Source of the DNA: Escherichia phage ph0011
Length of the DNA: 64,000 bases
Direction: 5' to 3' (one strand)
Sequence record: OP557969.1
Shown: positions 19,821-59,966 of the stretch, one piece after another
Layout of the letters: every line of letters begins with the position of its first letter
How positions within the stretch are numbered: position 1 is the first letter of the stretch
Position numbers and translations under genes: made by a program
The notes under the pieces: model-generated
The model's database searches: none
What the model was told of the DNA's origin: nothing
What the model saw: only the letters and a program-made list of their open reading frames with translations

Positions 19821-19837
19821 CAAAATAAAGGCACACT

Positions 19838-38464: not shown

Positions 38465-38656
38465 ATGTTGATTTATCAATGTGACGGTATTCGTGTTCTA
38501 CAACATCCTTATCTTCAAATCTTTCATGTTCAGATGTTTATGGAAGGTGATAATCCGAGAACTTATGAACGCACATATGATTATTTCACGGTCAAAGAGT
38601 GCGACAATATCGATGAAGTACGACGATTAGTACATGAACTCCAAAACAAAGGTTGA
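38465..38656 (+). CDS. small hypothetical protein
   Basis: 63 aa; stop codon lies inside the PeSL-like element. Confidence 0.4.
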   Translation: MLIYQCDGIRVLQHPYLQIFHVQMFMEGDNPRTYERTYDYFTVKECDNIDEVRRLVHELQNKG

Positions 38657-38682
38657 CTTCGGTCAGCCTTTTTTGTTATAAT
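38649..38682 (+). promoter_or_regulatory. PeSL-like terminator-promoter module (copy 1)
   Basis: AGGTTGACTTCGGTCAGCCTTTTTT hairpin with UUCG loop containing TTGACT, then TATAAT 18 nt downstream. Confidence 0.7.
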
Positions 38683-38711
38683 TATTTTATATTCTAATGG
38701 AGTTTAAAATT

Positions 38712-39152
38712 ATGTTAGTATATCGTTTTGAACTTAAATTTAGTTACATTGAACCTGATTTGAAACCAGCAACAAATGTTGGTCCATTTGCACGGTATTC
38801 TTCAAAATACAGTACTAAAAATGGTTTTGACCGTTTGTATATGTCTACGCCTACTCAGTTCCAACCTGAACCAACTGATGATGGAATCTATTCAATCAAA
38901 TATGGATGGGCATTTGGCTGTCAAAGTTTGAATGATTTGTTTCGGTTCTTTACTATGGACTTGGGAAAATTACATCGTGCTGGGTTTGCTATTTCCGTAT
39001 ATGACGTACCTGATAATCATGTGGATATTGGTCGTAATCAGGTTCAGTACTATTGCGGTAGTGCAATATTGGTTCGTATCATGTCAGTTAAGGATGCAAA
39101 GGTGGTGAACCGTCAAAGTAAAAGAGTAATACATGAGGTTCTATATGGATAA
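38712..39152 (+). CDS. hypothetical protein
   Basis: start MLVYRFELKF after GGAG. Confidence 0.45.
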   Translation: MLVYRFELKFSYIEPDLKPATNVGPFARYSSKYSTKNGFDRLYMSTPTQFQPEPTDDGIYSIKYGWAFGCQSLNDLFRFFTMDLGKLHRAGFAISVYDVPDNHVDIGRNQVQYYCGSAILVRIMSVKDAKVVNRQSKRVIHEVLYG

Positions 39153-39489
39153 GACACAAATAGAATTGAAAAAATTTGTATCATTTTATCTACCAAATGA
39201 TCCACGTATGTCACAAAAAGATTTGGAATATTATAATATCCTAAGTAAACAGCTAATGAGAAAGTTTCAACAGTGTTTAAGTATATTCAATACTGATGGT
39301 AGACGTAGATACCGAATCATTTCAATGAATGATGAAAACGCAAACTACTTTGATTATGATGTTGTTTTTAGAGCATATAATGATGACCGAATTAAATTAA
39401 ATTATGATCAAATAATATTTGATCTAAGTGCTATATCTGTTATAATTACTCACATCGCCGAGATTAATGGTTTTAAAGAGTGGTATTGA
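39145..39489 (+). CDS. hypothetical protein
   Basis: start MDKTQIELKK. Confidence 0.4.
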   Translation: MDKTQIELKKFVSFYLPNDPRMSQKDLEYYNILSKQLMRKFQQCLSIFNTDGRRRYRIISMNDENANYFDYDVVFRAYNDDRIKLNYDQIIFDLSAISVIITHIAEINGFKEWY

Positions 39490-39503
39490 ATAGAGGACAA
39501 TAT

Positions 39504-39770
39504 ATGAAGCTTAAATTGCAATATAATGGATTTACTTTACGTAATGATACTGAGTTTGTCAATCGTTCACCTGGTGCTGAACTTTTTTTGCGAGAGATGA
39601 ACATTCCTTTCATTATCACTACTGTAGGGGATCGTGAAGTTTTACAATACGCAGAACATCCTATTATTGATGTTCCTTGGTACTCTGAACATATGTACAT
39701 GGATATGGCACGTCGCTACAACTGTAAGTTCATAGTAGAAGGTGATAAAATTACAGTACAATTTAAATGA
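39504..39770 (+). CDS. hypothetical protein
   Basis: start MKLKLQYNG after AGAGGA. Confidence 0.45.
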   Translation: MKLKLQYNGFTLRNDTEFVNRSPGAELFLREMNIPFIITTVGDREVLQYAEHPIIDVPWYSEHMYMDMARRYNCKFIVEGDKITVQFK

Positions 39771-39823
39771 TCATTTAAGCATCATTGCAAATGTAGAAAT
39801 GGTGTACATGAAGTATAATATAA

Positions 39824-39855
39824 AAAGGGAAATCATATATGGCTTCCCCTTTTTC
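39824..39855 (+). terminator. candidate rho-independent terminator
   Basis: AAAGGGAAATCATATATGGCTTCCCCTTTTTC. Confidence 0.45.
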
Positions 39856-39896
39856 TTATTACGTACAATTAAGTACATATATTAATTGGGGAAATT

Positions 39897-40469
39897 ATGA
39901 ATCGTAAAGGTCGTTTTAAGGTATCAAAGAAGAACAAAAGTTCTAGATTTAAGCCTATAGTTTTAACCGTTAAAGCCAAAGCGGAATTAACTGCACTTAG
40001 TAAAAAGATTATTTCATCTAAGATCAAAATATCATATATAAATTCAGTAAAATATCATAATGTCAAACCACGAGATCAACTTATTTCACTCATATTTAAA
40101 CGTAATGATTTTGAGATATCAGTGGATGATTATAGAGCCTATAATGCTGGTTTCATTAATGTTATTTGTACTACAGAACTAACTGAATTAGAACATTTGT
40201 CATGTATAGTAAATCTCGATAAAGGTGTAGTGAAATACCACTTTGTACATTTTACTAATATTAATGATGGAAAGGGTGTACAATCCAGAACTATAGTACC
40301 TACATGTGATGTGACTAAATTATCAAAGCTCAATGACGAAGAATATTTTCAAGAAAGTACTGTAACTGAATATATAGATGAAATTATAGCAACTTACAAA
40401 GAATGTATATGGGTTTTAAATGCAATGAAGCCTAAATTATGTTTGATGAATATTGTACGTGATTTATGA
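39897..40469 (+). CDS. EExFFQxST motif family protein
   Basis: motif DEEYFQESTVTEYIDE. Confidence 0.55.
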   Translation: MNRKGRFKVSKKNKSSRFKPIVLTVKAKAELTALSKKIISSKIKISYINSVKYHNVKPRDQLISLIFKRNDFEISVDDYRAYNAGFINVICTTELTELEHLSCIVNLDKGVVKYHFVHFTNINDGKGVQSRTIVPTCDVTKLSKLNDEEYFQESTVTEYIDEIIATYKECIWVLNAMKPKLCLMNIVRDL

Positions 40470-40482
40470 ATAAGGAATTGAA

Positions 40483-40926
40483 ATGTGTTGGGTAAATGTA
40501 AACAGTATTGAACTTAATGAAAAAGATATTTTTGCATTTGTAAATTTAACAAATAATACAGTTCTAAAAGGTCGATTGTTCAGTTCCAGTACTGGTGAAA
40601 AATGGATTTCATTGATGAATGATTGTGGTGAGATTTATAATGTGATGTCTTTACCACAATGGGTCTATAGTAACACTGCGGATGATGTTCTTGCAGCAGT
40701 TATGCGTGAGTTTGAAAAACTTCCCGGTGGTGATATCAAAAACAAAGTTTTTAATGCCGAGCGTAAAAATTATACAGCACAACAATTAGAATCACTCGCT
40801 ATTGCTGCATATCAAGCTGCTATTAAGAAGCCCGAATGTGTTATTCTTAAGTATATTCCAGACTTAAAACTCACGTTGGAAGATATGGACGCATTCATTT
40901 TTACATCTGAACTGGACCAGTACTGA
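40483..40926 (+). CDS. hypothetical protein
   Basis: ORF 147 aa. Confidence 0.5.
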   Translation: MCWVNVNSIELNEKDIFAFVNLTNNTVLKGRLFSSSTGEKWISLMNDCGEIYNVMSLPQWVYSNTADDVLAAVMREFEKLPGGDIKNKVFNAERKNYTAQQLESLAIAAYQAAIKKPECVILKYIPDLKLTLEDMDAFIFTSELDQY

Positions 40927-41039
40927 TTTAACTTTGGGACAAACCTTCCTATAATGATATAATTTTTTTGTCAGTTTATTTAAATGACATATGAAATATA
41001 AATATTATTGTAAAGTTTATCTCTTATAGGAGTTATAAA

Positions 41040-41423
41040 ATGGTTGATAAATGGAATAAGAAAGAACCATCTCATGATGTGGATATTTCTGACCTAGATA
41101 ATGAACATAAACACAAGTACCTAGATTCACTAGGTCTACTAAAGCCGGACCAAAGTATTGCACATGATCGTCCTTCACGTGAAAAAGCATTCAGTCTGGA
41201 ATCTCTAGGTCATGAGCTAAATCGTGTGTTTGAAGAACACCCAATCTATGTACGTGATATTATTGAGAAACTTAAAGTAACTCCTAAAGAGCACTTTAAA
41301 GCAACTGTACACTCTGCATTCAATGCATTACATGAAGCACTTAAGAAAACTCACAACCTTCGTAAGATTCATGATGATATTGTAAATGCAATTGAAAGTG
41401 AAAAACATAAATTCAAGAAGTAA
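41040..41423 (+). CDS. charged hypothetical protein, paralog of 41489..42760
   Basis: shares KYLDSLGLLKP and LKVTPKEHFKA-type motifs with next gene. Confidence 0.5.
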   Translation: MVDKWNKKEPSHDVDISDLDNEHKHKYLDSLGLLKPDQSIAHDRPSREKAFSLESLGHELNRVFEEHPIYVRDIIEKLKVTPKEHFKATVHSAFNALHEALKKTHNLRKIHDDIVNAIESEKHKFKK

Positions 41424-41431
41424 TAGAAAAG

Positions 41432-41466
41432 AGGTTGACTTCGGTCAGCCTTTTTTATATATTATA
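41432..41466 (+). promoter_or_regulatory. PeSL-like terminator-promoter module (copy 2)
   Basis: GAGGTTGACTTCGGTCAGCCTTTTTT + TATATT/TATAAA. Confidence 0.65.
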
Positions 41467-41488
41467 AATATAGTCATAGAGAAAAAAC

Positions 41489-42760
41489 ATGAAATCTATG
41501 GAGAGAAATCAAATGCCAAGTAATTTTACTGATAAAAATGGTGGTAACATGGCAGGTCACTCGGATAAATGGAGTGAACGCAACCGCCGCCCAAATAGTT
41601 ACCAAGCAGGTCAAGGTTCCCGTGGCTCCAGAAACCAAGGAACTGGTCTAGCTGGTAAAGCAAATGCTGAACCAGGTGAAGTTAAAAGTACTGAGAACAT
41701 GACTGAGCTAGAAAAGCTACGTTATGTTAATTCATTAGGACTTCTTAATGCTACACAAAAACAACGTCTAGCTGATATGGAACGCGAAGAAAAAGAAAAA
41801 ACGACTGCTAAAGAAGAACCAAAACAGGAAGCACCGAAGCCGTCTAATCCTGTCAAAGAACTGTCTGATAAGTTAGGTAAGATCTTTGCAAATAAACCCC
41901 AACTTATTCAAGGTATTGTCAAAGAATTGCAATCTGTACCTAAAGAAGAATTAAAAGTCAAAGCACAAGCTGTTCTGGATGCAATGAAAGGAAATACCAG
42001 CACTGAGCCAACTGAAGTGTTCAGCACTATTATGCGTGCACTGGAAGGTAAACAACAAGGTGAAGAACGTGGTGATGAAGTAAGTCTTGAACGTGTTCTT
42101 AAAACATTTGATAGTATTGGGAAAGAAGACCGTGTTAATGCACAACAGGTTAAAAATGTACTAGCAAAATTGGAAAACCGTCTAGAAGGTAAAGATGATA
42201 AGATTAAATTGGTATCTGATGCAGTTGACAATGCACTTAAATCTTATGTACAAGGTGAAAAGAGTCGTTTTGTGACCGCGATGGATGTAGCATTCAATAC
42301 AATGAAAAAGTATGAAGCTGACCATGGTGAGAAGGTTACACCTGATGGTTATCTGATGCGTGATGATGAAGAAGGTGCAGTAGAACAGAATGATGTTCAT
42401 TCTGACGAAGATATTGATGATATGGAAGCTGAACTGTCACAAGATCGCCAAATGACTGAAAAATCACACAACGAACTAAAGAAATTAATGCAGTGGGTCG
42501 CTGATGTTGGAGAAAAAGCGGGTGCTGATAAGAAAAGTATAAACCGAAATCTTAGTTGGATTAAAGATAAAGTAGGTAACAACGCTCGTAAACTACAAAA
42601 AGCATGGACTGATGTAGTGAATGGTGCAGTAGATATTGACGTTGAATCTGGTGAAGCATATGATTATGCATTGACTACACTTGATGATTCTTTTCGTGAC
42701 TACGAAAAAGGAAACGTAACTCCTTGGGAAAAGGACATAATGAGCAAATACGGCAAATGA
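41489..42760 (+). CDS. large K/E-rich hypothetical protein
   Basis: 423 aa; LRYVNSLGLLNATQ, ELQSVPKEELKVKAQ motifs. Confidence 0.55.
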   Translation: MKSMERNQMPSNFTDKNGGNMAGHSDKWSERNRRPNSYQAGQGSRGSRNQGTGLAGKANAEPGEVKSTENMTELEKLRYVNSLGLLNATQKQRLADMEREEKEKTTAKEEPKQEAPKPSNPVKELSDKLGKIFANKPQLIQGIVKELQSVPKEELKVKAQAVLDAMKGNTSTEPTEVFSTIMRALEGKQQGEERGDEVSLERVLKTFDSIGKEDRVNAQQVKNVLAKLENRLEGKDDKIKLVSDAVDNALKSYVQGEKSRFVTAMDVAFNTMKKYEADHGEKVTPDGYLMRDDEEGAVEQNDVHSDEDIDDMEAELSQDRQMTEKSHNELKKLMQWVADVGEKAGADKKSINRNLSWIKDKVGNNARKLQKAWTDVVNGAVDIDVESGEAYDYALTTLDDSFRDYEKGNVTPWEKDIMSKYGK

Positions 42761-42768
42761 TAACAAAA

Positions 42769-42801
42769 AGGTTGACTTCGGTCAGCCTTTTTTGTTATGA
42801 T
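42769..42801 (+). promoter_or_regulatory. PeSL-like terminator-promoter module (copy 3)
   Basis: AAGGTTGACTTCGGTCAGCCTTTTTT + TATGAT. Confidence 0.65.
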
Positions 42802-42829
42802 GGTGCTATCCACTATTGAGGCCAGAGAG

Positions 42830-43453
42830 ATGACCAAGCAAGAAATATTCAAAACTTTAATTGATATATTACGTCCATCTAAATTACGGTGTGCAATGGA
42901 GTTTGATATTCCTTATGCTGAACAGGTAATCTTTCCACAAGTGAAATCAGCAGGACTTACGTTGCTTGGTATGGGAATGTACTCTGTTGTAGTTGAACAT
43001 GAAAACTATCCTGGGCGAGCATTTAAAGTGACAACATCACGCTGGGATGGCTTTCGTGCATATGCAAAGTACTGCATTGAAAACGCAGGAACTAAATTTC
43101 TTCCTGTTATATACAGTGCAAATGAGCAAGGAAACTTCGGCTGGTATGAGATGGATAAGTATTACCCTATAATTAAACAAAAAAATAATTACGATGATTT
43201 TGTGAGTACTAAAATTGGTGATTTATATTCGTATGCACATGCTGGACAGTATGCTTCATCACTATCTACTATGTGTGGTAGCCCAGAAGAAATTGCTATT
43301 GCAACAGTTGTTGCGAACATAATGAAAGAGTTTCATGGTCGTTTTGTACCAGACATTCATTCCAGAAATGTAATGATGGACAAAGATGGCAACGTATACA
43401 TCACAGATCCTATTTCATGTGATGTACGGCGAGAAATACCAATCACACAATAA
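42830..43453 (+). CDS. hypothetical protein
   Basis: start MTKQEIFK, downstream of the module -10 (track ATG 42797 lies inside the -10). Confidence 0.45.
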   Translation: MTKQEIFKTLIDILRPSKLRCAMEFDIPYAEQVIFPQVKSAGLTLLGMGMYSVVVEHENYPGRAFKVTTSRWDGFRAYAKYCIENAGTKFLPVIYSANEQGNFGWYEMDKYYPIIKQKNNYDDFVSTKIGDLYSYAHAGQYASSLSTMCGSPEEIAIATVVANIMKEFHGRFVPDIHSRNVMMDKDGNVYITDPISCDVRREIPITQ

Positions 43454-43467
43454 GACCCAGTTTTTTG

Positions 43468-43496
43468 TTGACAGAACTTTAATACTGTTATATTAT
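43468..43496 (+). promoter_or_regulatory. candidate promoter
   Basis: TTGACA ... TATATT/TATTAT. Confidence 0.4.
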
Positions 43497-43534
43497 TTAA
43501 AAATGATAAACGAATTACATCTAAGGGTAAAATC

Positions 43535-43816
43535 ATGCGTTCATTTGAAAACTTAATCGGAAAAAACCGTTTAGCAGAAATTGAAGCAGATGTAAAAGAA
43601 TTGTCACAATCAAAAAGTTATATTCACTTAGATGAACTTTTTATTAAGTACGGTGAAATTGGATTTAAGACGTTATTTGTTTTTACTTTTAAAGTTCACA
43701 GTTTAAAGTACTTCGATTTAAGTTATAAAAATGGTCAACCGAATCTATATCATATGTATTATCTCAAGAATATAGAAGAGGCTCATTCCTTATTTTCTGA
43801 ATATCTGAAGGTATAA
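43535..43816 (+). CDS. hypothetical protein
   Basis: ORF 93 aa. Confidence 0.45.
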   Translation: MRSFENLIGKNRLAEIEADVKELSQSKSYIHLDELFIKYGEIGFKTLFVFTFKVHSLKYFDLSYKNGQPNLYHMYYLKNIEEAHSLFSEYLKV

Positions 43817-43817
43817 A

Positions 43818-44156
43818 ATGGAACAATATTTTGAATTAATTAATAAAGTGTCATTCTATGTAGTGTCATTGACGTGGGTTTATTTCATGTTTTGCTACAT
43901 TATTGCATTCTTCCGATATACTACTTTATATGAACGTATCTATTATGATGCACCAATTTCATTCTTGGTGTTCTGTGCATGTACGTGGGGAATATTAGAA
44001 GTACTGATATGTGGATATAGAACTGATGAATTAAATCTGGTATCGGTATTGACTGGGTTATCACTTGGTGTTATGATATCTTTCTTTCCAGTATGGTTGT
44101 TCTTTGAACTGATCCATCGCATTGATGTATGGCGTTCTAATATCCCTGAAAAATAA
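43818..44156 (+). CDS. small membrane protein family A, member 1
   Basis: TM-rich; C-terminal IHRIDVWRSNIPEK. Confidence 0.5.
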   Translation: MEQYFELINKVSFYVVSLTWVYFMFCYIIAFFRYTTLYERIYYDAPISFLVFCACTWGILEVLICGYRTDELNLVSVLTGLSLGVMISFFPVWLFFELIHRIDVWRSNIPEK

Positions 44157-44159
44157 GGA

Positions 44160-44507
44160 TTGATAATGATTTTCTACACTAATTCGTTTGCTTATGCTAT
44201 TGCATCAATCTACATTGTGTACTTCTTATTTGGTGGAGTACTGTACTTCTTTAAGTACAAAACATTGTTTAACAGAATGTATCCAAATCACCCAATTGTA
44301 GTAGTACTTTTGATAATTTCTGTTGCTCATATCATTGTAGAAACAATAATGGGTATCAGTGCAGTACATTACAGTCTAGGTACTATTGTAATTATTACTA
44401 TGATCATAGCATACATTTTAGTAATGGGTTCTGGTTTATTTGGGAATGTAGCAATGAAAATGTATAATCGAATCAAAACATTACGTGATAATCTACCGGA
44501 GCGTTGA
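44160..44507 (+). CDS. small membrane protein family A, member 2
   Basis: C-terminal KTLRDNLPER. Confidence 0.5.
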   Translation: MIMIFYTNSFAYAIASIYIVYFLFGGVLYFFKYKTLFNRMYPNHPIVVVLLIISVAHIIVETIMGISAVHYSLGTIVIITMIIAYILVMGSGLFGNVAMKMYNRIKTLRDNLPER

Positions 44508-44508
44508 G

Positions 44509-44853
44509 TTGTATAATTTAAATTTAATATCATATATCATAACAACAATGTTTACTTTCTATGCCTTTGTTGGTATAATCCTACTGTACTTTAAATTTTA
44601 TAAAGTCTTTGACCGTTTATTTCCATCATTGGAACATGAATTCTTATTGGTGATGTACATCTGTTTAACGTGTATGTCTACATTTTTCACTGTATTTGAT
44701 GGTATCATTGGTATTAAAGCTGAATATCCAAATGGAAGTACACTTGTTGCCTTTATACTGGTAGGATTCTTCGGTACTTATATCACTTTCATTTCAACAT
44801 GGTCTGTGGTTGATTATCTCATTAGATTACGAAATAAAATGCCAAATCGATAG
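44509..44853 (+). CDS. small membrane protein family A, member 3
   Basis: C-terminal IRLRNKMPNR; start uncertain (TTG 44509 after GGAG, or ATG 44548). Confidence 0.4.
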   Translation: MYNLNLISYIITTMFTFYAFVGIILLYFKFYKVFDRLFPSLEHEFLLVMYICLTCMSTFFTVFDGIIGIKAEYPNGSTLVAFILVGFFGTYITFISTWSVVDYLIRLRNKMPNR

Positions 44854-44862
44854 GGGATTGCT

Positions 44863-45120
44863 ATGTTTGCATTGCGTAATAAAAATACAAAAGAGATTCT
44901 ATGTATCTCAGCAGTATGGGATTGTGCAGGAAGTGAAATGATCCTCGAAGAAGGTTCAGGTGATTGTGTTTATGTTGTTCAGGATCGTCGTGAACTTGAA
45001 TCATTACTTGATGAATTTAATGCTGGTGGTAATCCTAAAAGTACTGAATTCCCTGTGATTATTAATCCAGCATCACCTGGTTCTTATGAAATTCTACAAC
45101 TGTGGGAGATGGATAAGTAA
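44863..45120 (+). CDS. hypothetical protein
   Basis: ORF 85 aa. Confidence 0.45.
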   Translation: MFALRNKNTKEILCISAVWDCAGSEMILEEGSGDCVYVVQDRRELESLLDEFNAGGNPKSTEFPVIINPASPGSYEILQLWEMDK

Positions 45121-45500
45121 TGCGTCAAATGTACAAAGTAACCGAGCTAAACAAGCGTCTGATTAAACAATCAATGTTCGAGGACAAAGAGTCTTATTAT
45201 AACTTTAAACGTGCTGTAGAGGCTGCTATCCATATCCAGAAGCTTAAAGATAGTGGTTGTATTATTCTCGAAAATGGTTCTGATGTTGTAACGGATGACT
45301 TTAGTGTAGCGTTTGATGTTTCACCAGATGGCACACTATCAATGCCACGATTAGGAACTGGAAACATGACTGTTTGGGTCGGCTTCACTATGGGTAATGT
45401 ACCAGACACGGTGTATGTAGATGATATTGAGTTGAAAGAAAGCTTCAAAAACTTATCTTATCTTGAACCACAATACGCACATGAAATGAATTTATTTTGA
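45120..45500 (+). CDS. hypothetical protein
   Basis: ORF 126 aa. Confidence 0.45.
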   Translation: MRQMYKVTELNKRLIKQSMFEDKESYYNFKRAVEAAIHIQKLKDSGCIILENGSDVVTDDFSVAFDVSPDGTLSMPRLGTGNMTVWVGFTMGNVPDTVYVDDIELKESFKNLSYLEPQYAHEMNLF

Positions 45501-45501
45501 G

Positions 45502-45529
45502 TTGACAAACAGATTTAGTACTGTATAAT
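45502..45529 (+). promoter_or_regulatory. early promoter
   Basis: TTGACAAACAGATTTAGTACTGTATAATG. Confidence 0.65.
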
Positions 45530-45576
45530 GTTTACCAACGGGATGAATTTCCCATCCCTACTATCGAGGAATTACC

Positions 45577-46131
45577 ATGATTACTTTTAAGAAAACAGCT
45601 AACCATATCCATGAAATTTACATTAACGGTCATAAAGCTGGGCTTCTTCGCTTACTGGCACATCATCCTAATGTAGACGTATCTGATAATGAACCTAAAG
45701 ATTGGCGTGTCTTTTTCTTTGGAAAGTACAGTGATTTTCAAGTATCAAATCTGAAGAATATTCGTTCAGTATGCACGTTAACTGAAATTAAAGAAAAGTT
45801 AGCAGAAGCACTGAAAACCAATCCAAATGGAATCCTTCCTCCTGATAACTTTGTAGATAAAGGTTATGCTTTAGCTCATTTCAAAGATGGTACTATTCAA
45901 TCTATTAGTACTGAATATGAATATCACTGGACTGAGTACTTCACTTATGGCTCACCTAATACATTGATGGCTTCACGTAGTAAATTGGAAGAAGTACTGA
46001 CGCGTATTAATGAACGCGAGCGTCAGTTCTATGACAAACCAGAAATGTGGAGTTCAACTTACATTGACCGTATTGACTATGTTATTATGACTCCAATCTT
46101 TAACACTGCTTACTATGATTCTTTGAAATAA
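45577..46131 (+). CDS. hypothetical protein
   Basis: ORF 184 aa. Confidence 0.5.
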   Translation: MITFKKTANHIHEIYINGHKAGLLRLLAHHPNVDVSDNEPKDWRVFFFGKYSDFQVSNLKNIRSVCTLTEIKEKLAEALKTNPNGILPPDNFVDKGYALAHFKDGTIQSISTEYEYHWTEYFTYGSPNTLMASRSKLEEVLTRINERERQFYDKPEMWSSTYIDRIDYVIMTPIFNTAYYDSLK

Positions 46132-46142
46132 GGATAACTTAT

Positions 46143-46319
46143 ATGAAACTACGTACTCGTAATCGCCTGATGGATGCACTGTATCATGAACAGTATTCAT
46201 TAAATGAAGTAAAGCGTCAGCTAATGTATACATATCAGTTACCAGCCCGTACTGCGAAACAGCGTGCTAAAGAATTACTGAAAGAAGCTATCGAGTACTG
46301 GGAATCCGATTCGTATTAA
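46143..46319 (+). CDS. small basic hypothetical protein
   Basis: 58-aa ORF read from sequence (MKLRTRNRLMDALYHE...). Confidence 0.35.
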   Translation: MKLRTRNRLMDALYHEQYSLNEVKRQLMYTYQLPARTAKQRAKELLKEAIEYWESDSY

Positions 46320-46358
46320 TATTACGTGATATGTCACATTAATTAAGTGAGACGATAA

Positions 46359-46610
46359 ATGAAAATTTTATTAGTTCTAATACTACTAATTGTTTTACCA
46401 TTTACTTTAGTATCTCCTGAACTTGCATGGAATGTGTTTGTGTACTTGGTATGTACTATTGCGGTAAATGGTATCTTGTTCTTAGTTCTATTCATAAATG
46501 GAATAGGACACGGTGGTGGATGGACCAGTACTGCTAATATTGTACATAAAACCACTATGTCTTTATTTGTAGTGTGGAATTTATTCTGGACTTGGTTTGT
46601 GTTCTTCTAA
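46359..46610 (+). CDS. small membrane protein
   Basis: 83 aa. Confidence 0.45.
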   Translation: MKILLVLILLIVLPFTLVSPELAWNVFVYLVCTIAVNGILFLVLFINGIGHGGGWTSTANIVHKTTMSLFVVWNLFWTWFVFF

Positions 46611-46618
46611 TTAAAAAT

Positions 46619-46990
46619 ATGAATATAGATTTGAAAGGTTCAACACGAACTGTTATCCTTATTGGTGATTATGCTATTAAGATTCCAACCTTTAAAAGTT
46701 GGAAGTTATTCCTAACTGGAATGATAGCGAACCTCAATGAACGTTCATGGATGCAGTACTCCAATCGTAGTGATAGTGGAATATCCCCTACGCTGTGGTC
46801 CTCTCGTACTGGTTTAATAACAGTACAGAAACGTTGTAAACCTGTACAACATAGGGGTTTATTTTGGGTTGAGTTGTGTGCGTTGGCATCAAAATCAGAG
46901 TTGAATACTGACTTCTTCTATTCAGATGCGAAGCCAGAAAACTTTGGGTATCTGTGTGGTAAGTTGGTTAAACTTGATTATGGAGATTAA
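46619..46990 (+). CDS. hypothetical protein
   Basis: start MNIDLKGSTR. Confidence 0.4.
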   Translation: MNIDLKGSTRTVILIGDYAIKIPTFKSWKLFLTGMIANLNERSWMQYSNRSDSGISPTLWSSRTGLITVQKRCKPVQHRGLFWVELCALASKSELNTDFFYSDAKPENFGYLCGKLVKLDYGD

Positions 46991-46991
46991 T

Positions 46992-47261
46992 ATGTACGCA
47001 TTGTATAATAAAGAAAAGAAACGATTTGCTAAGGTTGAAATTTCGATTGATACATTTGACATGTTGGAGTACTGTATTGTAACGGATTTATATGCTAACT
47101 TGTATTACGTTCTTGATGACGTATCAGTACTGCAACGATTGCTTGAGAATTCCAAAAGTCAATGCCAGGGCATCTATGATGGTTCATCTTATGAAACACC
47201 TGAGTGTTCCTACGGCTATCTGGACGGGTATGAGATTGTAAAGTTGGGGATTGTTGAATAA
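46992..47261 (+). CDS. hypothetical protein
   Basis: start MYALYNKEKK. Confidence 0.4.
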   Translation: MYALYNKEKKRFAKVEISIDTFDMLEYCIVTDLYANLYYVLDDVSVLQRLLENSKSQCQGIYDGSSYETPECSYGYLDGYEIVKLGIVE

Positions 47262-47273
47262 ATTGATTAAACA

Positions 47274-47687
47274 ATGAAGAAGTGTATCGCATGTAATATT
47301 GAAAAAGACATTAGTGAATTTGGTATAAGAAAAGATACTGGGAAACATAGAAATACATGCAAAGGTTGTAGTAATATTACCAGTAAGAAAACCAGAAATA
47401 AAAAAACTGATGTCAAAAAGCTTGAAGAAATCAAAAGAAAAAATAAAGATTTCATGACCAGAGTTAAATCATTTTATGGATGTAGTATTTGTGCGATGAA
47501 GTATCCAGAATGTTTAGACTTTCACCATCTTGACCCTAATACTAAAGAACATACACCAAGTTCTATGTTCAGTAAAAGTCGAGATGCTATCAAAGATGAA
47601 ATTCGAAAGTGTATGATTCTTTGTTCTAATCATCATCGCATGGTCCATTCTGGAAGACTATGTTTAATTGAAAGAAAAAAGGGTTGA
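47274..47687 (+). CDS. HNH endonuclease with zinc ribbons
   Basis: CIACN...CKGC; CSICAMKYPECLDFHHLDPNTKEH...CMILCSNHHRMVH. Confidence 0.65.
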   Translation: MKKCIACNIEKDISEFGIRKDTGKHRNTCKGCSNITSKKTRNKKTDVKKLEEIKRKNKDFMTRVKSFYGCSICAMKYPECLDFHHLDPNTKEHTPSSMFSKSRDAIKDEIRKCMILCSNHHRMVHSGRLCLIERKKG

Positions 47688-47713
47688 CTTCTGTCAGCCC
47701 TTTTTGTTATAAT
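47680..47713 (+). promoter_or_regulatory. PeSL-like terminator-promoter module (copy 4)
   Basis: GGGTTGACTTCTGTCAGCCCTTTTT + TATAAT; HNH stop codon inside. Confidence 0.7.
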
Positions 47714-47743
47714 CATTTCATCGAAGCTTGAGGATATTAAAAA

Positions 47744-48226
47744 ATGAACTACTTAGATTTGATTAACTCATATGTAATTAGCCCATATATTAACGATGAA
47801 AGTATTAAATGTGTAGTATCAGTTGAGGATCACCCAACTGGTGCATTAAAACTATTTGGTGCAGGTCAAATTAACAACCGCAACGGGTATACATTTGAAT
47901 ATTTACCATCAAGTGATAAGTTTGGATGTTATGACCACGAAACAAATAAGGGATATATTTGGGGAACACACTTAAGTATTGCACAATCTTCGCTTTTCGA
48001 AGACCATAATGGGTATATGTGGCGATATTTGGGTGCAGTACTGCTTGATATCGCCCGTAGGTATAAGAAGTGTATAACATTAACTTATACTCATACAAAT
48101 GAATATAAAAACGAAGTTCAAGTTAATGATGAGGAATTTTTTAAAAATATTCCTTATATTGATTTTAACTGTCAAAATGGTTATGCTACATACCCAGCAA
48201 GTTTTGAAGGTGAAAGATACTTTTAA
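47744..48226 (+). CDS. hypothetical protein
   Basis: ORF 160 aa. Confidence 0.5.
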   Translation: MNYLDLINSYVISPYINDESIKCVVSVEDHPTGALKLFGAGQINNRNGYTFEYLPSSDKFGCYDHETNKGYIWGTHLSIAQSSLFEDHNGYMWRYLGAVLLDIARRYKKCITLTYTHTNEYKNEVQVNDEEFFKNIPYIDFNCQNGYATYPASFEGERYF

Positions 48227-48319
48227 AAAAGAGTTGATTTAAAATGTATAAGTGATATACTTATCATATCAAGACGAAACAACAACCAACATGTAAACGC
48301 TACTAATTAGGAGACACAC

Positions 48320-48730
48320 ATGATCAACAAACATTTCGCAGTTTCCAAAACTGTAACCATCGATAATGAATGGGAAATTACCATTCTAAATGATACGGCT
48401 CGTGGACTACTGGCAGAGAATATTCTCCAGAAGTATATTGACTGTGAATCTGAGTTGATCATTCATGAACGCACTAAATTTCTTCTAATTGGTGGAAAGA
48501 AATGTAAAGTTCTGGTATTCACTGACAAAATGACCCGTGCAGATATCATTACTAAATTGGTTAGTTCTTCACGTCATCGTCCAGGTGTTAATAGATCAAT
48601 CGATGAGATTAAAGAAATGAAGCCAGGTGATTTATTCATTGTCGCGGGGTTTGATTCAAAAACGAGAAAAATGAGTATTTCAGAAATGTATACTAATGCT
48701 GAAATGCGTAATAAATTCTTTTCTAACTAA
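48320..48730 (+). CDS. hypothetical protein
   Basis: ORF 136 aa, AGGAGA RBS. Confidence 0.5.
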   Translation: MINKHFAVSKTVTIDNEWEITILNDTARGLLAENILQKYIDCESELIIHERTKFLLIGGKKCKVLVFTDKMTRADIITKLVSSSRHRPGVNRSIDEIKEMKPGDLFIVAGFDSKTRKMSISEMYTNAEMRNKFFSN

Positions 48731-48776
48731 TCAACCCGTGTAGTGTAATTTTATACACATTTTAGATGGATAAAAT

Positions 48777-49982
48777 ATGATCTTCGAAACTGAAAAAACA
48801 TTACTTGAAACTTACACTTTGGATAATCTAGTTAAACTTAACCTTGAACGACCAGATATCCAACGCAATTGGCAATGGAAAAATAATAACCAAAACAATC
48901 TTATTATTTCTATTCTAAAGAATTCTCCAATTGGTCAATTTTTGGTATGGAATGAAACTAGCTCGAATACTATGTACATCACTGATGGTCGTCATCGCTA
49001 TACAGTAATTTCAAACTTCATGAACAATAAATTTCCAGTCACTGTTAGAACTGAAGATGGGACTAAGGATTATTATTATGGTTCTGATGATCCAGTAGAA
49101 GAAGAAAACATTTCACTGAAACTTGGTGGAAAACGTAAAACATGGGATTTTTTATCTAAAGAAGAGCGTGATGCGTTTCGTGCAAAGGAAGTATCAGTAA
49201 CATTCGTTCATACCGACGATGCTGAAAAGATTTCAGATATGTTTATTGCAATTAATACTGCATCATCTAATCTATGTAAAGTGGATTTGTTAGTATGTAA
49301 GCACCACACAAATACATATATGAAACGTATTGATAAGCTATTTTCAATTGAGTTTGGTAAAGATGAACCCATGGCATCATTAGTTAGTGATTTTTACCGT
49401 GCAATCGGTCATTGTTGTGTTAATGGTAATCATGAGAAACACTTATCAAAGCTTAAAGCTAACCCTAAAGTACAGAAGCGTGAATTTTTTGAAATGTTCT
49501 TTATGGTCAAAGCGTTCGCGAAATTATGTGCTAGTGCACTAGATGGTAAGCTAAACTCATACCGTATGCCAAAGATGAACCAACAAATTGAAGAAGCAAT
49601 TATTAGTACTGAATCTCTTAGTGAGAAACATGCTGATGCTGATTTTGTTCAGTTTGTTAATGCAGTTCGTGAGATGAATTTAGTATCACCTGTAAAATCT
49701 GCACAAAAATTTCAATTTATCCATGAAGATATGAAGAATACCTTTAATAAGAGACTCTTTTGTATTTTGATGGGATTGTTTTATGCTTATGGTACAAGAT
49801 TGCCATTACATTTTCGTGATGTATGGGGTGACATTTATAATGAAATGTCAGAAAAAAGTTCAGAACTACCTACTAATGGAACCGATAGTCCTTCCGCAAT
49901 TTTAGCTGGCATTGAAATGATTGAACCATACTTTAGTTCAGCATTCAATAATATTCCATTGAGTGCTTACGTGGGAAAGTGA
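48777..49982 (+). CDS. DUF262-like (ParB/Srx-fold, GmrSD N-domain type) protein
   Basis: RPDIQRNWQW...LIISILKNSPIGQFLVW...YITDGRHRYTVISNF matches DUF262 pattern (P-x-FQR...W, DGQQR-like). Confidence 0.6.
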   Translation: MIFETEKTLLETYTLDNLVKLNLERPDIQRNWQWKNNNQNNLIISILKNSPIGQFLVWNETSSNTMYITDGRHRYTVISNFMNNKFPVTVRTEDGTKDYYYGSDDPVEEENISLKLGGKRKTWDFLSKEERDAFRAKEVSVTFVHTDDAEKISDMFIAINTASSNLCKVDLLVCKHHTNTYMKRIDKLFSIEFGKDEPMASLVSDFYRAIGHCCVNGNHEKHLSKLKANPKVQKREFFEMFFMVKAFAKLCASALDGKLNSYRMPKMNQQIEEAIISTESLSEKHADADFVQFVNAVREMNLVSPVKSAQKFQFIHEDMKNTFNKRLFCILMGLFYAYGTRLPLHFRDVWGDIYNEMSEKSSELPTNGTDSPSAILAGIEMIEPYFSSAFNNIPLSAYVGK

Positions 49983-50191
49983 AAAAACGTGGTGTACTAA
50001 ATACACTACAAAAACAATATCTTTTGAAAAGATATTCTTTGTGTTATCTTTGTGGACAGAAGATATCGGATTCAGATATACTACATTTTGACCATGTTCA
50101 ATCATTAAAAGATGGTGGTAGTAATGAATTAAGTAATATACGACCAACGCACTCCATTTGTAATTTACGTAAAGGTGCTAAGAGTATGTAA
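49979..50191 (+). CDS. small HNH nuclease
   Basis: CYLCGQK...HFDHVQSLKDGGSNELSNIRPTHSICNLRKG; ATGA-coupled to DUF262 gene. Confidence 0.65.
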   Translation: MKKRGVLNTLQKQYLLKRYSLCYLCGQKISDSDILHFDHVQSLKDGGSNELSNIRPTHSICNLRKGAKSM

Positions 50192-50240
50192 AGCTAATAC
50201 TCCCCAAAGATGGGGAGTATATATAATTAAAGGGATTTAT

Positions 50241-51077
50241 ATGAGTATTAAAAATAAATTAGATCAGTATTATACAAATCCAGAGTATGCTAAAAAATGT
50301 TATACTAAATCATTAGAGTTTATTTCGTCTCGAATGGACATTAATTCATCTTATTATATGGAGCCTTGTGTTGGGACTGGTTCGTTTTATCTACAGTTTC
50401 CTGAATCCCGTCGATTTGGGTGTGACATTGATCCGGTACATCTTGATGAAAATGTTATCCATTCCGATTTTTTACTTGAATTTGGTATCAATGCAAGAAG
50501 TAAAGGTGAACCAATACTTGTTATAAGTAATCCACCTTTTGGAAAAATTTCTTCTTTAGCCATTAAGTTTTTTAATAAATGTGCATCAATGCCTGAAGTG
50601 AAATATATTTGTTTTATTGTCCCTATGACATTTCGAAAAGCAGCAACACAAAATAAACTCAATGAGATGTTTCACCTGGTATTGGATGAAGATTCTCCAA
50701 ATGACGCTTTTATACTGCACGGAGAACCACATCATGTACCATGCGTGTTTCAGATATGGGAACGTAGGGATACAGTTCGTGAGAAACATGAGATTAAGAA
50801 CAAATCAGACTATTTCGATTATTGTACTAAGGAAGAGGCTGATGTTTTTATAAAACGTGTAGGAACCAAAGCAGGTGAGTATGCCGAGCCAGGGAAAGAA
50901 CACAAAGATGCAAGTATGTACTACATCAAAACTAAGTATGTTGATGAAATCATTAAGGTTTTGAAAAGTAAAGATTACCTTGATGAGATAAAACGTATAC
51001 GTAAAACCACAGCAGGGGTATACTGTGTGTCCAAATCTGAAATCGTTCTTAATATTGAAAAACGTTTGAATCTTTGA
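50241..51077 (+). CDS. DNA N6-adenine methyltransferase (gamma-class motif order), N4-cytosine not excluded
   Basis: YYTNPEYA (motif X-like), EPCVGTGSF (motif I), ISNPPFG (motif IV); start at MSIKNKLDQ. Confidence 0.6.
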   Translation: MSIKNKLDQYYTNPEYAKKCYTKSLEFISSRMDINSSYYMEPCVGTGSFYLQFPESRRFGCDIDPVHLDENVIHSDFLLEFGINARSKGEPILVISNPPFGKISSLAIKFFNKCASMPEVKYICFIVPMTFRKAATQNKLNEMFHLVLDEDSPNDAFILHGEPHHVPCVFQIWERRDTVREKHEIKNKSDYFDYCTKEEADVFIKRVGTKAGEYAEPGKEHKDASMYYIKTKYVDEIIKVLKSKDYLDEIKRIRKTTAGVYCVSKSEIVLNIEKRLNL

Positions 51078-51084
51078 AAATTAT

Positions 51085-51117
51085 AGGTTGACTTCGGTCA
51101 GCCTTTATTGTTATAAT
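51085..51117 (+). promoter_or_regulatory. PeSL-like terminator-promoter module (copy 5)
   Basis: AGGTTGACTTCGGTCAGCCTTTATTG + TATAAT. Confidence 0.7.
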
Positions 51118-51145
51118 CATTTTATATAAACAAGAGGATGATTAC

Positions 51146-51649
51146 ATGACACGCATTAATTTAGTACACGTTAAAGAGCTTGCTGACCAACATTTGATGG
51201 CTGAATATCGTGAACTTCCACGGGTGTTCGGTGCTGTACAAAAACACGTCCAAGCACGTAAGAGTGTCCGTAATTTCAAAATTAACAGTACTTATCTGTT
51301 AGGTTCAGGTCATGTGACATTTTTCTACGACAAGTTACTGTACTTACAAAAGCGTCATGTTGAGATTGTCAACGAATGTTTGCGTCGTGGTATGAAGATT
51401 CAAAACACAGAAGTAAACGACATTAGCAGCTTCCCTGATGAGTTTTGTAATGACTACGTACCTTCGGAGTCAGAGATTAAAATGTCTCGTGACCGTTTGA
51501 TTGAGAAGCTCCAGATGAAGCCTAAGTGGTATAAGTTTACTGCTGTTGAAATTCCACAGTACGTTAAAGATATGCAGAACGTAAAATCTAGTACTGATAT
51601 GTTCGAAGAAATTGAAGAGCAAATCAAAGATGAAATGAATAATTATTAA
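51146..51649 (+). CDS. denV: endonuclease V, pyrimidine-dimer DNA glycosylase
   Basis: [31 protein letters not shown]...[12 protein letters not shown] matches my recollection of T4 DenV nearly residue for residue over the N-terminal half. Confidence 0.85.
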
Positions 51650-51654
51650 AGGTA

Positions 51655-51688
51655 AGGGTTGACTTCGGTCAACCCTTTTTGCTATAAT
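51655..51688 (+). promoter_or_regulatory. PeSL-like terminator-promoter module (copy 6)
   Basis: AAGGGTTGACTTCGGTCAACCCTTTTT + TATAAT. Confidence 0.7.
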
Positions 51689-51716
51689 CATTTCATCAAC
51701 TACAGAGGGTAACGAA

Positions 51717-52490
51717 ATGAACCGTACAGAAAAAGCACTTCAAATCGAAAAAAACTTCAACTCTATGATGGCAGCACTGGAATGTCTTCTGGATACACAA
51801 ACCAACTCCATCAATTCTTTGATTGTATCAGGAAAAGGTGGTGTTGGTAAAACTTACAACGTTGACCAGCGTTTACGGAAAGCGGATGATAACTTTGAAA
51901 TTGACTACAAAAAAATCAGTGGTAAAGTAACTACTGTGGGTCTGTACGAAGCACTGTATCGTTCACGTCATGCTGCTTCTGTACTGTTGCTGGATGATGT
52001 TGATATCTTCTCTGATGAGACTAACATTGACTTACTCAAAGCTGTATTGGATACATCTGAAAAGCGTGTAGTATCATATGCAACATCTGCTAAGTACCTT
52101 GAACAGCAGGGTATTCCTAAGCAGTTTGAATTCCGTGGTAAGGTTATCTTCCTGACGAACAAAAACCTGTCACAGATTGCTAAAGGTAAAAGTAGTTTAG
52201 CACCACACATCGATGCACTTATTACTCGTAGCATCTTTGTTGACCTGCAACTGTTTACAAATGAAGAAGTAATGATTCACATTGAAAACATTATGAACAA
52301 AACAAACATCCTTGAAAACAATGGTGTTAACAAAAATGGTTGCAAAGCAATTCTGAATTGGATGCTGAACAATGAAGATCGTCTGCGTAGCCCATCACTG
52401 CGTATGCCAGTACTGATCGCTGGTTTGTATAATAAATTCCCATACGACTGGGAGTCAATGGCAGAGAATATGTTCCTTGAGAAAATTTAA
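51717..52490 (+). CDS. P-loop NTPase
   Basis: Walker A SGKGGVGKT, Walker B-like VLLLDDVD. Confidence 0.55.
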   Translation: MNRTEKALQIEKNFNSMMAALECLLDTQTNSINSLIVSGKGGVGKTYNVDQRLRKADDNFEIDYKKISGKVTTVGLYEALYRSRHAASVLLLDDVDIFSDETNIDLLKAVLDTSEKRVVSYATSAKYLEQQGIPKQFEFRGKVIFLTNKNLSQIAKGKSSLAPHIDALITRSIFVDLQLFTNEEVMIHIENIMNKTNILENNGVNKNGCKAILNWMLNNEDRLRSPSLRMPVLIAGLYNKFPYDWESMAENMFLEKI

Positions 52491-52552: not shown

Positions 52553-52894
52553 ATGCTTGAGTTTTTTAATTCAAATACAATGCTTGGTATTACTTTAATT
52601 TACATGTTTGTATTTTTGTTTTATCATTCAATTGTAATTAGCCTGTGGTATTTTAAAAGGAAAGTTGTTTTTAAATTGTATTCGTATGATAATGTATTCT
52701 TAGTTGTATATAGTATTGTACAAGGTGGGTTTATTTTATTTGGTATTATGACTTATTTCATTTATCGATTGGAAATTGATAATACACCACACATTACACA
52801 ATATGTTGTGTTTTCTGGACTAATCGTGTGGTTGTTGACATGTGTCGTGTACTTTATTATTAAAGCTCGTGACAAAATTAAAGGGGAATTCTAA
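52553..52894 (+). CDS. small membrane protein family A, member 4
   Basis: LWYFKRK after TM1; C-terminal ARDKIKGEF. Confidence 0.5.
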   Translation: MLEFFNSNTMLGITLIYMFVFLFYHSIVISLWYFKRKVVFKLYSYDNVFLVVYSIVQGGFILFGIMTYFIYRLEIDNTPHITQYVVFSGLIVWLLTCVVYFIIKARDKIKGEF

Positions 52895-53232
52895 TGTTAA
52901 CATTTTTTCAGTCAGATACAATGATTAGTATTACGTTGATTTATCTGTTTGGATTTTTCTTTTATCATGCACTAGTTGTAGTACTATGGTATTTTAAAAA
53001 GAATATAGTTTTCAAACTGTATCCTAAAGGAAACGTTTCATTACTTCTTTTCACTATTATCCAAGGTATCTTTGCAATTTTTGGTATTACTGCACATTTA
53101 ATTTATTGTGCTAATCCACATTTGAACTCAATATCACAATACATTGTATTTTTTGGATTACTAATTTGGGTACTAATATACGTAACTAATCTCATCATTA
53201 ATGGTAGAGCTAAAATTCACGGAGACTTTTAA
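52894..53232 (+). CDS. small membrane protein family A, member 5
   Basis: close paralog of 52553 (MLTFFQSDTMISITLIY...). Confidence 0.5.
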   Translation: MLTFFQSDTMISITLIYLFGFFFYHALVVVLWYFKKNIVFKLYPKGNVSLLLFTIIQGIFAIFGITAHLIYCANPHLNSISQYIVFFGLLIWVLIYVTNLIINGRAKIHGDF

Positions 53233-53579
53233 TGTTTGAATCTTATCTTGACTTTTTAAGGAATAGTCCAGTAGCACACTCACTTGCTGGGATTGTTCTA
53301 TCAGGCTATATCACATTTTGGGTAGTTATGTTTCTAGGATGGTATTTTAAACGACAATTCTATAAGCGTAACGGTGAAGATTTTATGAATTCTGCTATTA
53401 ATCAATCGTTGTTTGCATCAACATTGATAGCATCAATTGTAGCAACACTCACTGGTGCAGTTCTATCAGCATTCGCCGCAGTTTACGGCACACTTGGAGT
53501 GGTATGTTTATCTTTAATATTGATCATTAAACTTTGTTGTGTTATGATTGAACTTCGAAATAAGATACCGGAGGAATGA
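53232..53579 (+). CDS. small membrane protein family A, member 6
   Basis: GWYFKRQ; C-terminal ELRNKIPEE. Confidence 0.5.
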   Translation: MFESYLDFLRNSPVAHSLAGIVLSGYITFWVVMFLGWYFKRQFYKRNGEDFMNSAINQSLFASTLIASIVATLTGAVLSAFAAVYGTLGVVCLSLILIIKLCCVMIELRNKIPEE

Positions 53580-56026: not shown

Positions 56027-56037
56027 TTTAAAATATT

Positions 56038-56063
56038 AAAGCCAGTGCTCTCGTACTGGCTTT
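56038..56063. terminator. bidirectional terminator hairpin between convergent genes
   Basis: AAAGCCAGTGCTCTCGTACTGGCTTT. Confidence 0.55.
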
Positions 56064-56067
56064 AATA

Positions 56068-59896: not shown

Positions 59897-59966
59897 ATTC
59901 CCTCCTTATTCATTATACTATATTTAATACAAATAATAAAAGCCAGTATCAAGTACTGGCCTATAT

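Follow-up and report, generated by a model that had tools for sequence, protein, structure and literature searches.

Promoter early stem-loops (PeSLs) are known from the phages RB49/phi1, PST/T4 and nt-1/KVP40 (Arbiol et al. 2010, PMC2839356; Comeau et al. 2014, PMC4122927), and in RB49/phi1 both promoter and terminator activity and the formation of mini-circles have been demonstrated (PMC2839356). In bacteria, promoter-coupled terminators have been described experimentally, in which the DNA of the stem-loop acts as the -35 element and the T-tract supports the -10 element, the coupled promoter raising termination efficiency (Fletcher, ..., Grainger, bioRxiv 10.64898/2026.08.19.745784). Here, we analyzed a stretch of 64,000 nucleotides of Escherichia phage ph0011 (OP557969.1; this whole stretch is called the window below), in which six copies of a cassette that fuses a hairpin and T-run with a sigma-70-like promoter separate groups of genes. 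The comparisons below suggest that these cassettes are probably dual terminator-promoter boundaries and preferred sites of module deletion, insertion and exchange. The dual function is well supported by the sequence comparisons and a role in recombination appears likely from them; termination, initiation, expression timing and the mechanism of recombination are what we infer from these patterns.

The original prediction had likened the cassettes to the PeSLs of T4-type genomes, and their architecture matches the published elements on every in silico feature (PMC2839356, PMC4122927). Both are composite intergenic units in which a sigma-70-like promoter and a stem-loop terminator are combined with an AT-rich stretch on one side and a ribosome-binding site and ATG on the other. 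All six window copies have a -35/-10 promoter and a stable stem-loop, one with a weak -10; an AT-rich stretch is found upstream of the -35, and a ribosome-binding site and start codon follow on the 3' side. Like PeSLs, they are numerous where small unknown open reading frames (ORFs) are densely packed, flank indels or replacements between close relatives, and are accompanied by degraded half copies. The nt-1 stem consensus A3-4 G3-loop-C3 T3-4 fits the AAAGGG...CCCTTTT of the window cassettes, and the identical 18-mer followed by a -10 is present in the KVP40-like phage VH7D. The window cassettes differ in that the hairpin itself carries the -35, in its 5' arm and loop, and this hardly varies between copies. 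In published PeSLs, the stem-loop may separate the -35 from the -10, cover the -10 (RB49) or directly precede the promoter (PST, nt-1).

Matches to the region came from 43 GenBank phages, which are without exception jumbo myoviruses of the 121Q/PBECO4/G17 group (Asteriusvirus) and each cover at most 74% of it; UE-S1 was the best match (89.8% identity). Judged by these matches, the source phage belongs among the Asteriusvirus-like jumbo coliphages (121Q/PBECO4/RaK2 group) and is not strictly T4-type; the 121Q/RaK2-type group is only distantly related to T4 (PMC5259590). Residence in a ~350-kb genome outside the T4-like subfamily is a property of the hosts and not of the element.

Bacterial promoter-coupled terminators share with the window cassettes the T-tract directly 5' of the -10, the use of stem-loop DNA as the -35, the location between tandem genes and the upstream A-tract. 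The gap from termination to the next start is predicted at ~13-15 bp here, compared with at most 35 bp and a mode near 10 bp in the bacterial study. The bacterial elements are, however, chromosomal and diverse in sequence (the study is silent on phages, repeats and recombination), whereas the window cassettes belong to one family of near-identical repeats, have a standard leader and an extended -10, and are tied to gene-content variation. Another comparison is offered by the morons of lambdoid phages, reportedly described by Juhala et al. and by Hendrix et al. in 2000, which are likewise extra genes between conserved ones, with their own promoter and terminator and autonomous expression. Morons carry individual, unrelated signals, whereas one fused signal is found at every boundary in the window, those of conserved genes included. 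We found no description of such cassettes in the literature on Asteriusvirus or RaK2-like phages, where papers list promoters and terminators separately, and the GenBank records of G17 and UE-S1 label the cassettes solely as terminators.

Six copies of a hairpin carrying a -35 hexamer

The 25-mer (A/G)GGTTGACTTCGGTCAGCC(T/C)TTTTT, searched in the window with up to three mismatches, gave six matches, all on the + strand, at 38650, 41432, 42769, 47681, 51085 and 51656 (0, 0, 0, 3, 1 and 3 mismatches, respectively). The chance expectation was 0, with no match among 100 dinucleotide-preserving shuffles. A search with a 16-nt core returned the identical six sites, and in an independent repeat search the six copies were the top direct-repeat family of the 36-54 kb region, in register over 48-73 nt. 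Beyond these sites, the 25-mer and half-cassette searches found no other copy or half copy in the window. All six predicted copies therefore exist, although three had been placed one base early (38649, 47680 and 51655). They all lie in a 13-kb part of the window, and in 121Q seven of the eight exact copies fall inside ~14 kb of the 348-kb genome (genome-wide counts are of exact 18-mer matches only). An Rfam covariance-model scan of the window gave 7 tRNAs only and no family at the cassettes.

Each cassette starts with an A-rich run, followed by a 20-nt hairpin of the form (A/G)GG-TTGAC-TTCG-GTCAG-CC(T/C), then a T-run 5-6 nt long, in most cases a G and one further base, and finally the -10. 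The RNA folds into 8-13 bp with a 4-nt loop (free energy -11.6 to -21.3 kcal/mol, z-scores -2.8 to -6.8), and several cassettes were scored as terminator-like in a terminator-pattern scan. A stable fold and a T-run are thus present in every copy, as had been claimed, but the UUCG loop is found in five of the six, the copy at 47681 having UUCU. The -35 TTGACT is made of the 5' arm plus the first loop base. The arrangement of TTGACT 18 nt before TATAAT is correct for four copies (-35 at 38653, 47684, 51088 and 51659, all with a TG extension), but the copy at 42772 has TATGAT with TG at 18 bp and that at 41435 has TATATT at 17 bp, without TG. Of the seven best promoter-like sites in 36-54 kb, four belong to cassettes (11 of 12 consensus matches plus TG).

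An A-tract is found upstream of every hairpin. On the other side, the start codons at 38712, 41489, 42830, 47744, 51146 and 51717, supported by relatives, lie 19-24 nt past the predicted transcription start and carry GAGG/GGAG just upstream. The unit from hairpin to ATG measures ~60-68 bp and occupies the whole intergenic gap. The program-called ORF starts at 38697 and 42797 fall in or directly after a -10; relatives and ribosome-binding sites place the true starts at 38712 (gp192-like) and 42830 (kinase, MTKQEIF).

All the cassettes are on the + strand, with U-runs at ~38670-38676, 41452-41457, 42789-42795, 47701-47707, 51105-51111 and 51676-51682 for cassettes 1 to 6. Cassette 1 (38645..38690) comprises the A-tract, the hairpin at 38650-38669 (AGGTTGACTTCGGTCAGCCT), the -35 at 38653-38658, the T-run, TG and the -10 TATAAT at 38677-38682, with a predicted start site at ~38689; its orthologue carries a terminator annotation in UE-S1 and G17. 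The TGA of the upstream ORF (38465-38656) lies inside its -35, and at cassette 4 the TGA of an HNH endonuclease gene, ending at 47687, does the same, the two cases of such overlap that had been noticed. Cassette 2 (41427..41471; hairpin 41432-41451, -35 at 41435-41440) lies between the gp199-like and gp201-like genes, and has the weak TATATT at 41458-41463 with a 17-nt spacer and a predicted start near 41470. In 121Q-type genomes, two cassettes surround the 37-amino-acid (aa) ORF gp200 where the window has this single one. Cassette 3 (42764..42809; hairpin 42769-42788, -35 at 42772-42777, TG, -10 TATGAT at 42796-42801, predicted start near 42808) stands upstream of the protein-kinase gene, which probably begins at the ATG at 42830. 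In 121Q, G17, JP4 and CRJP21, two cassettes surround gp202-204, and both align to the single window cassette 3.

Cassette 4 (47676..47721) forms the left edge of an insert specific to the window. It has a hairpin at 47681-47700 (GGGTTGACTTCTGTCAGCCC, outer pair G-C), the -35 at 47684-47689, TG and TATAAT at 47708-47713, with the predicted start at 47720 in a CAT. Cassette 5 (51080..51125; hairpin 51085-51104, -35 at 51088-51093, a T-run broken as TTTATTG, TATAAT at 51112-51117, predicted start near 51124) is the right edge of this insert and the predicted promoter of denV. Cassette 6 (51651..51696; hairpin 51656-51675, GGGTTGACTTCGGTCAACCC, fully Watson-Crick; -35 at 51659-51664, TG, TATAAT at 51683-51688, predicted start at 51695 in a CAT) lies between denV and a gp223-like gene. 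Inside the insert, a degraded cassette at 48231..48290 (+) consists of AAAAAAGAGTTGATT, 16 nt, TATACT and the cassette-type leader CATATCAAGACGAAAC, and is without the 3' hairpin arm.

If both signals are used, then GG-UUGAC-UUCG-GUCAG-CC in the RNA, extended by A/U pairs and followed by the U-run, would terminate or at least attenuate the upstream transcript. In the DNA, the same bases would make a strong host sigma-70 promoter, with the loop, 3' arm and T-run as the 17-18 bp spacer and TGnTATAAT as an extended -10. Transcription would start ~7 nt past the -10, often at the A of the conserved CAT, and give a leader of 19-24 nt with GAGG before the ATG; the upstream A-tract could act as a UP-like element and a stem extension at once. 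With a fused terminator-promoter at each boundary, the region would therefore be split into insulated, self-expressing modules, and its gene types fit the early, host-takeover part of the genome. The same directly oriented, near-identical repeats of ~30-60 bp would be preferred sites of module deletion, insertion and exchange.

Co-conservation of hairpin and promoter

Cassettes of the window were pooled with those of eight related loci in GenBank and 47 in IMG/VR, giving 99 distinct 30-mers. Over an 11-pair structure, 97.2% of the pair cells are paired, a level reached in 0 of 500 shuffles. The pair just outside GG/CC is GC in 71 copies, AU in 17, GU in 8 and UA in 2. The 5' arm TTGAC is nearly invariant, and the 3' arm varies only by wobble-compatible transitions; the -35 would be a second constraint that accounts for this extra rigidity of the 5' arm. 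In 87 of the 99 copies, one pair is U.G, and as a U.G pair works only in + strand RNA, the structure appears to be selected in the sense transcript. Among 131 distinct cassettes compared as 70-mers, 124 have a -10-like hexamer, with a spacer of 17-18 bp in 120 and of 15, 16 or 20 bp in four. The commonest hexamers are TATAAT (44) and TATTAT (40), TG is present in 100 copies, and a CAT motif stands at the expected start site. Alignment of the copies thus agrees with the proposed fusion of the two signals: compensatory or wobble changes keep the hairpin, the arm with the -35 hardly changes, and the extended -10 is conserved together with it.

These alignments also bear on the idea that the element, rather than being a terminator, is bound by a protein as an operator or serves in RNA processing or stability (for RNase III, or as a protective 3' hairpin). 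The palindrome does overlap the promoter, terminator palindromes can double as transcription-factor sites according to a part of the bacterial study (bioRxiv 10.64898/2026.08.19.745784), and the region encodes a kinase annotated in 121Q and PHROGs as a positive regulator of RNase III. The explanation is nevertheless highly improbable, as the DNA palindrome is imperfect in the 87 copies whose U.G pair works in + strand RNA alone, every copy has the U-run of an intrinsic terminator, and no candidate binding protein was identified.

A second possibility is that the cassettes are plain intrinsic terminators and look like promoters only because the genome is AT-rich and a T-run is present. This would agree with the GenBank records of G17 and UE-S1, and promoter-like matches in the region (105) were close to those in shuffled sequence (93.7 +/- 9.8). 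As a control, we searched 185,579 bacterial species genomes with a 23-mer covering hairpin and T-run, and found 24 exact occurrences where ~0.14 were expected by chance. A -10 at 17-18 bp follows in only one of the 24, and none has TG, whereas 63 of 69 copies in phage loci have the -10 and 58 of them TG (Fisher p = 3e-15). The bacterial copies, by their sequence, are plain terminators, a point in favor of this reading. However, the frequency of the -10 in phage copies and its near absence from bacterial ones indicate that it is an added, selected feature and not a by-product of the T-run. The 5' arm that stays invariant while the 3' arm drifts, the fixed -35/-10 spacing, and the constant distance of CAT, leader and ribosome-binding site also argue against plain terminators, which we consider very unlikely.

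Gene content and breakpoints at the cassette junctions

To compare gene content, a synteny map of gene families was built from nine genomes, the window and eight Asteriusvirus relatives. The relatives came from GenBank phage records, as a kinase-seeded IMG/VR protein search yielded only two loci, and the CMSTMSU locus (L007) was excluded because it is apparently frameshift-ridden. Cassettes were found at orthologous positions in all relatives compared. With slashes for cassettes, the window reads 191 / 192-194, 197-199 / 201 / 205...216, HNH / x4, x5, DUF262, methyltransferase / denV / 223. The slot between gp199 and gp201 has three states (nothing, gp200, or gp200 plus two genes), as do the slot between gp201 and gp205 (nothing, gp202-204, or a variant without the kinase) and that between gp216 and denV (nothing, HNH, or HNH plus a 3.35-kb module); the slot between denV and gp223 has eight contents across the nine genomes. 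Most gene gain and loss thus sits in cassette-bounded slots, and breakpoints affect 5 of 6 cassette junctions compared with 5 of 27 other junctions (Fisher p = 0.005). The concentration of synteny breaks at the elements, which had been proposed as a check, was therefore observed. Mobility of single-gene and few-gene modules was borne out in part: the slots do hold genes that come and go, other than gp201 and denV, but one module has ~13 genes, and the two-cassette units gp201 and denV are conserved.

At positions with a single cassette in the window but a pair in a relative, each member of the pair can be aligned with the window copy, and the alignments overlap. Breakpoints are also found inside cassettes. 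In five relatives with gp218 after denV, AAAGGGTTGACTTCGGT is joined to TACACAAAGG past the denV stop; AAAGGGTTGACTTCGGT is a 5' half-cassette cut within the 3' arm, found in 121Q-type genomes at the position of cassette 6, while the window and fEgEco12 have an intact cassette after denV. At the 3.35-kb insert, the left cassette (47681) is of the resident denV-cassette type of JP4/fEgEco12 through CATTTCATCGAA and then diverges. The right cassette (51085) is foreign-flavoured (outer A-T pair, TTTATTG, CATTTTATATAAAC) and turns resident-like from about AAGAGGATGATTACATG. By sequence type, the two are reciprocal hybrids of resident and foreign cassettes, and this pattern would be the expected trace of one cassette-cassette crossover, by which a circle integrates or, in reverse, the module is deleted.

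The window-specific module is missing from all eight Asteriusvirus relatives compared, and a nucleotide search for a recent donor of 47.7-51.1 kb found only Cronobacter phage GAP32, at 70% identity over the methyltransferase gene. A recent transfer of the insert is thus unsupported. The order in GAP32 is HNH, cassette, cassette, an ORF, DUF262 (22% identity) and methyltransferase (69% identity), cassette, and further on a gp223 homologue, and a 355-kb IMG/VR metagenomic contig has the DUF262-methyltransferase pair followed by a cassette.

Several observations weigh against the cassettes as working promoters and as sites of exchange. The 18-bp spacer is sub-optimal, the copy at 41432 has a poor -10, and at 51085 the T-run is interrupted and the hairpin is the weakest of the six (z = -2.8). 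Roughly one in three differences in gene content is found outside the cassettes (gp195-196, x22, gp214, gp216), and conserved flanking genes could equally carry exchange between close relatives. Unrelated bacteria have evolved this hairpin independently, as a plain terminator, and hairpin plus -10 also occurs in phages of Gram-positive hosts; if the hairpin can originate independently, then the identity of copies is weak evidence for common descent or mobility. The synteny with GAP32 means that the insert may be an old module lost elsewhere by cassette-to-cassette deletion.

Some of these points would favor a model of the moron kind, where the cassettes are passive boundaries: they delimit functional units, each incoming module carries its own signals, only well-signalled junctions survive selection, and cassette homology is not the mediator. 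The similarity of copies would then reflect function, as the independent appearance of the design in unrelated phages and bacteria suggests, and the placement of cassettes at the same genes across genera, the indels without cassettes and the conserved genes available for exchange would all agree. On the other hand, the junctions are precise, with one cassette of a short genome aligning to both cassettes of a long one; the cassettes at the insert edges look like reciprocal hybrids; five relatives have the breakpoint within the hairpin; and cassette-to-cassette mini-circles of PeSLs were detected experimentally in RB49/phi1 (PMC2839356). We regard passive boundaries as a possible but doubtful account, and dual boundaries that are also preferred sites of module exchange as the probable one, whether this preference comes from homologous recombination between cassettes or from selection that favors clean junctions.

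A further reading, in which the cassettes are small mobile elements (MITE-like or targets of a homing endonuclease) under active transposition or copying, could explain the numerous near-identical copies, and HNH genes do adjoin cassette 4 and, in GAP32, a cassette as well. The copies are, however, strictly intergenic, co-oriented with genes and at the same orthologous positions across genera, and no terminal inverted repeats beyond the hairpin, target-site duplications or transposase were found. The absence of target duplications and transposase and the positional conservation led us to reject this reading, which has hardly any probability left.

Outside Asteriusvirus, cassettes stand upstream of the kinase, denV and gp223 in other genera, where the proteins are 50-69% identical; given this same-gene placement, the cassettes are old, positionally conserved units that probably act in regulation. 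The exact 18-mer GGTTGACTTCGGTCRRCC was found at 47 IMG/VR loci, mostly on contigs of 345-378 kb taken as RaK2-like. Together with a T-run and -10, it is also present in Vibrio phage VH7D (a KVP40-like T4-type phage), Cronobacter phage CR3 and Brochothrix phage A9, which has a Gram-positive host; three further matches (L025, L039 and L051) are GC-rich, without a T-run, and look like chance. One could imagine the hairpin-embedded -35 cassette as a quasi-universal "standard connector" for short-homology module exchange between unrelated phages, and this, if true, would provide a physical basis for cross-family modular evolution. The proposal is rather unlikely. TTGACT, the C(UUCG)G tetraloop and two G-C clamp pairs together fix almost every base, making independent convergence plausible, and the alternative is one optimal solution reached independently. 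It is also a possibility that a phage factor, for example the adjacent HNH endonuclease, targets the cassette.

Genes of the modules and other elements of the window

All genes of the modules are on the + strand. Between cassettes 1 and 2 (38712..41423) are homologues of 121Q gp192, 193, 194, 197, 198 and 199; gp195-196 are missing from the window and UE-S1. A different terminator, of A5-hairpin-T5 type (AAAAAGGGAAATCATATATGGCTTCCCCTTTTTC), lies at 39822-39860 and coincides with a synteny break outside the cassettes (39768/39880), the position of gp195-196 in 121Q-type genomes. The single gene between cassettes 2 and 3 (41489..42760) encodes a gp201-like protein of 423 aa, a virion structural protein according to the 121Q annotation. 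The cassettes had been said to bracket charged paralogs at 41040 and 41489; a pairwise E = 1e-8 agrees with paralogy, but identity is merely 23% over 106 aa. The module between cassettes 3 and 4 (42830..47687) starts with the protein kinase (T7 gp0.7-like annotation), followed by ~11 small ORFs and the HNH endonuclease (47274-47687), and has predicted hairpin-less promoters at 43468 and 45502.

The window-specific module between cassettes 4 and 5 (47744..51077) contains two ORFans (47744-48226 and 48320-48730), a DUF262/GmrSD_N domain protein (48777-49982) and an N6-adenine methyltransferase-like protein (50175-51077) that resembles the GAP32 enzyme. The nuclease/methylase module of the original prediction is thus recovered as these last two proteins and the HNH endonuclease. 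The DUF262/GmrSD_N nuclease-like and methyltransferase-like genes form a conserved pair in several RaK2-like genera (window 48777-51077; L049, 4830-7068; L052, 791-3027), which may be a self-protecting nuclease/methylase module for defence or anti-defence. Between cassettes 5 and 6 (51146..51649) is denV alone, correctly recognized as a cassette-bracketed pyrimidine dimer DNA glycosylase gene (Pfam Pyr_excise, E = 1.6e-15). The gp223-like gene (51717..52490) follows cassette 6 and has a cassette upstream in other genera too. Further downstream, 52553-54228 holds tandem paralogous ORFs of ~112 aa, with direct repeats 52562-52765 and 52903-53106 (71% identity); some homologues are labelled "regulator of chromosome condensation" in relatives.

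The window also has a second family of strong sigma-70-type promoters, without hairpin, reading TTGACW-N11-(C)AGTACTG-TATAAT and often identical over ~30 nt. Members are at 16110, 16522, 16833, 17592, 18484, 32926, 36882, 45502 and 62385, and also at 43468 and ~52499. Several are upstream of tRNA genes, which they are predicted to drive; a cluster of seven tRNA genes spans 15419-19821, where the tRNA-Ser call at 18523-18614 has an unusual anticodon, ACT. The palindromic 8-mer CAGTACTG occurs 38 times in the whole window compared with 0.85 expected (for example at 16124, 16536, 16847, 17606, 18498, 32940 and 62397). It is found in promoter spacers and inside ORFs, its AGTACT core occurs in terminator stems, and the intergenic DNA of related RaK2-like loci is likewise rich in AGTACT. 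The 8-mer may be a binding, modification or recognition site. Another terminator family with the stem AAAGCCAGTACT...AGTACTGGCTTT is present on both strands at 56032-56075, 57260, 58702 and 59942-59962; genes converge in this region, and the members of the family probably terminate transcription in both directions. In relatives, a conserved non-coding motif, ...GGCAGATAAGCCGT TAGCCCAYWGGGTGC..., lies ~25-30 nt past the -10 of many cassettes and promoters (L023, 121Q at ~145-149 kb; L013, L027, L032, L033, L041 and L050) and is not in the window. It suggests a repeated family of short promoter-proximal RNAs.

The window cassettes extend PeSL-type elements from T4-like phages to the RaK2/121Q jumbo phages, where they have so far been annotated only as terminators, and link the phage PeSL literature to the recent bacterial work on promoter-coupled terminators. 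The contrast between phage copies with a -10 and bacterial copies without one offers a clean comparative argument for the dual function. The cassettes, very compact at ~60 bp, would be natural insulator-promoter parts. For the phages themselves, they would give a simple reading of a poorly understood early region of 350-kb genomes as a series of insulated, self-expressing modules, and would explain where isolates differ in gene content, which is relevant to choosing and engineering therapeutic phages.

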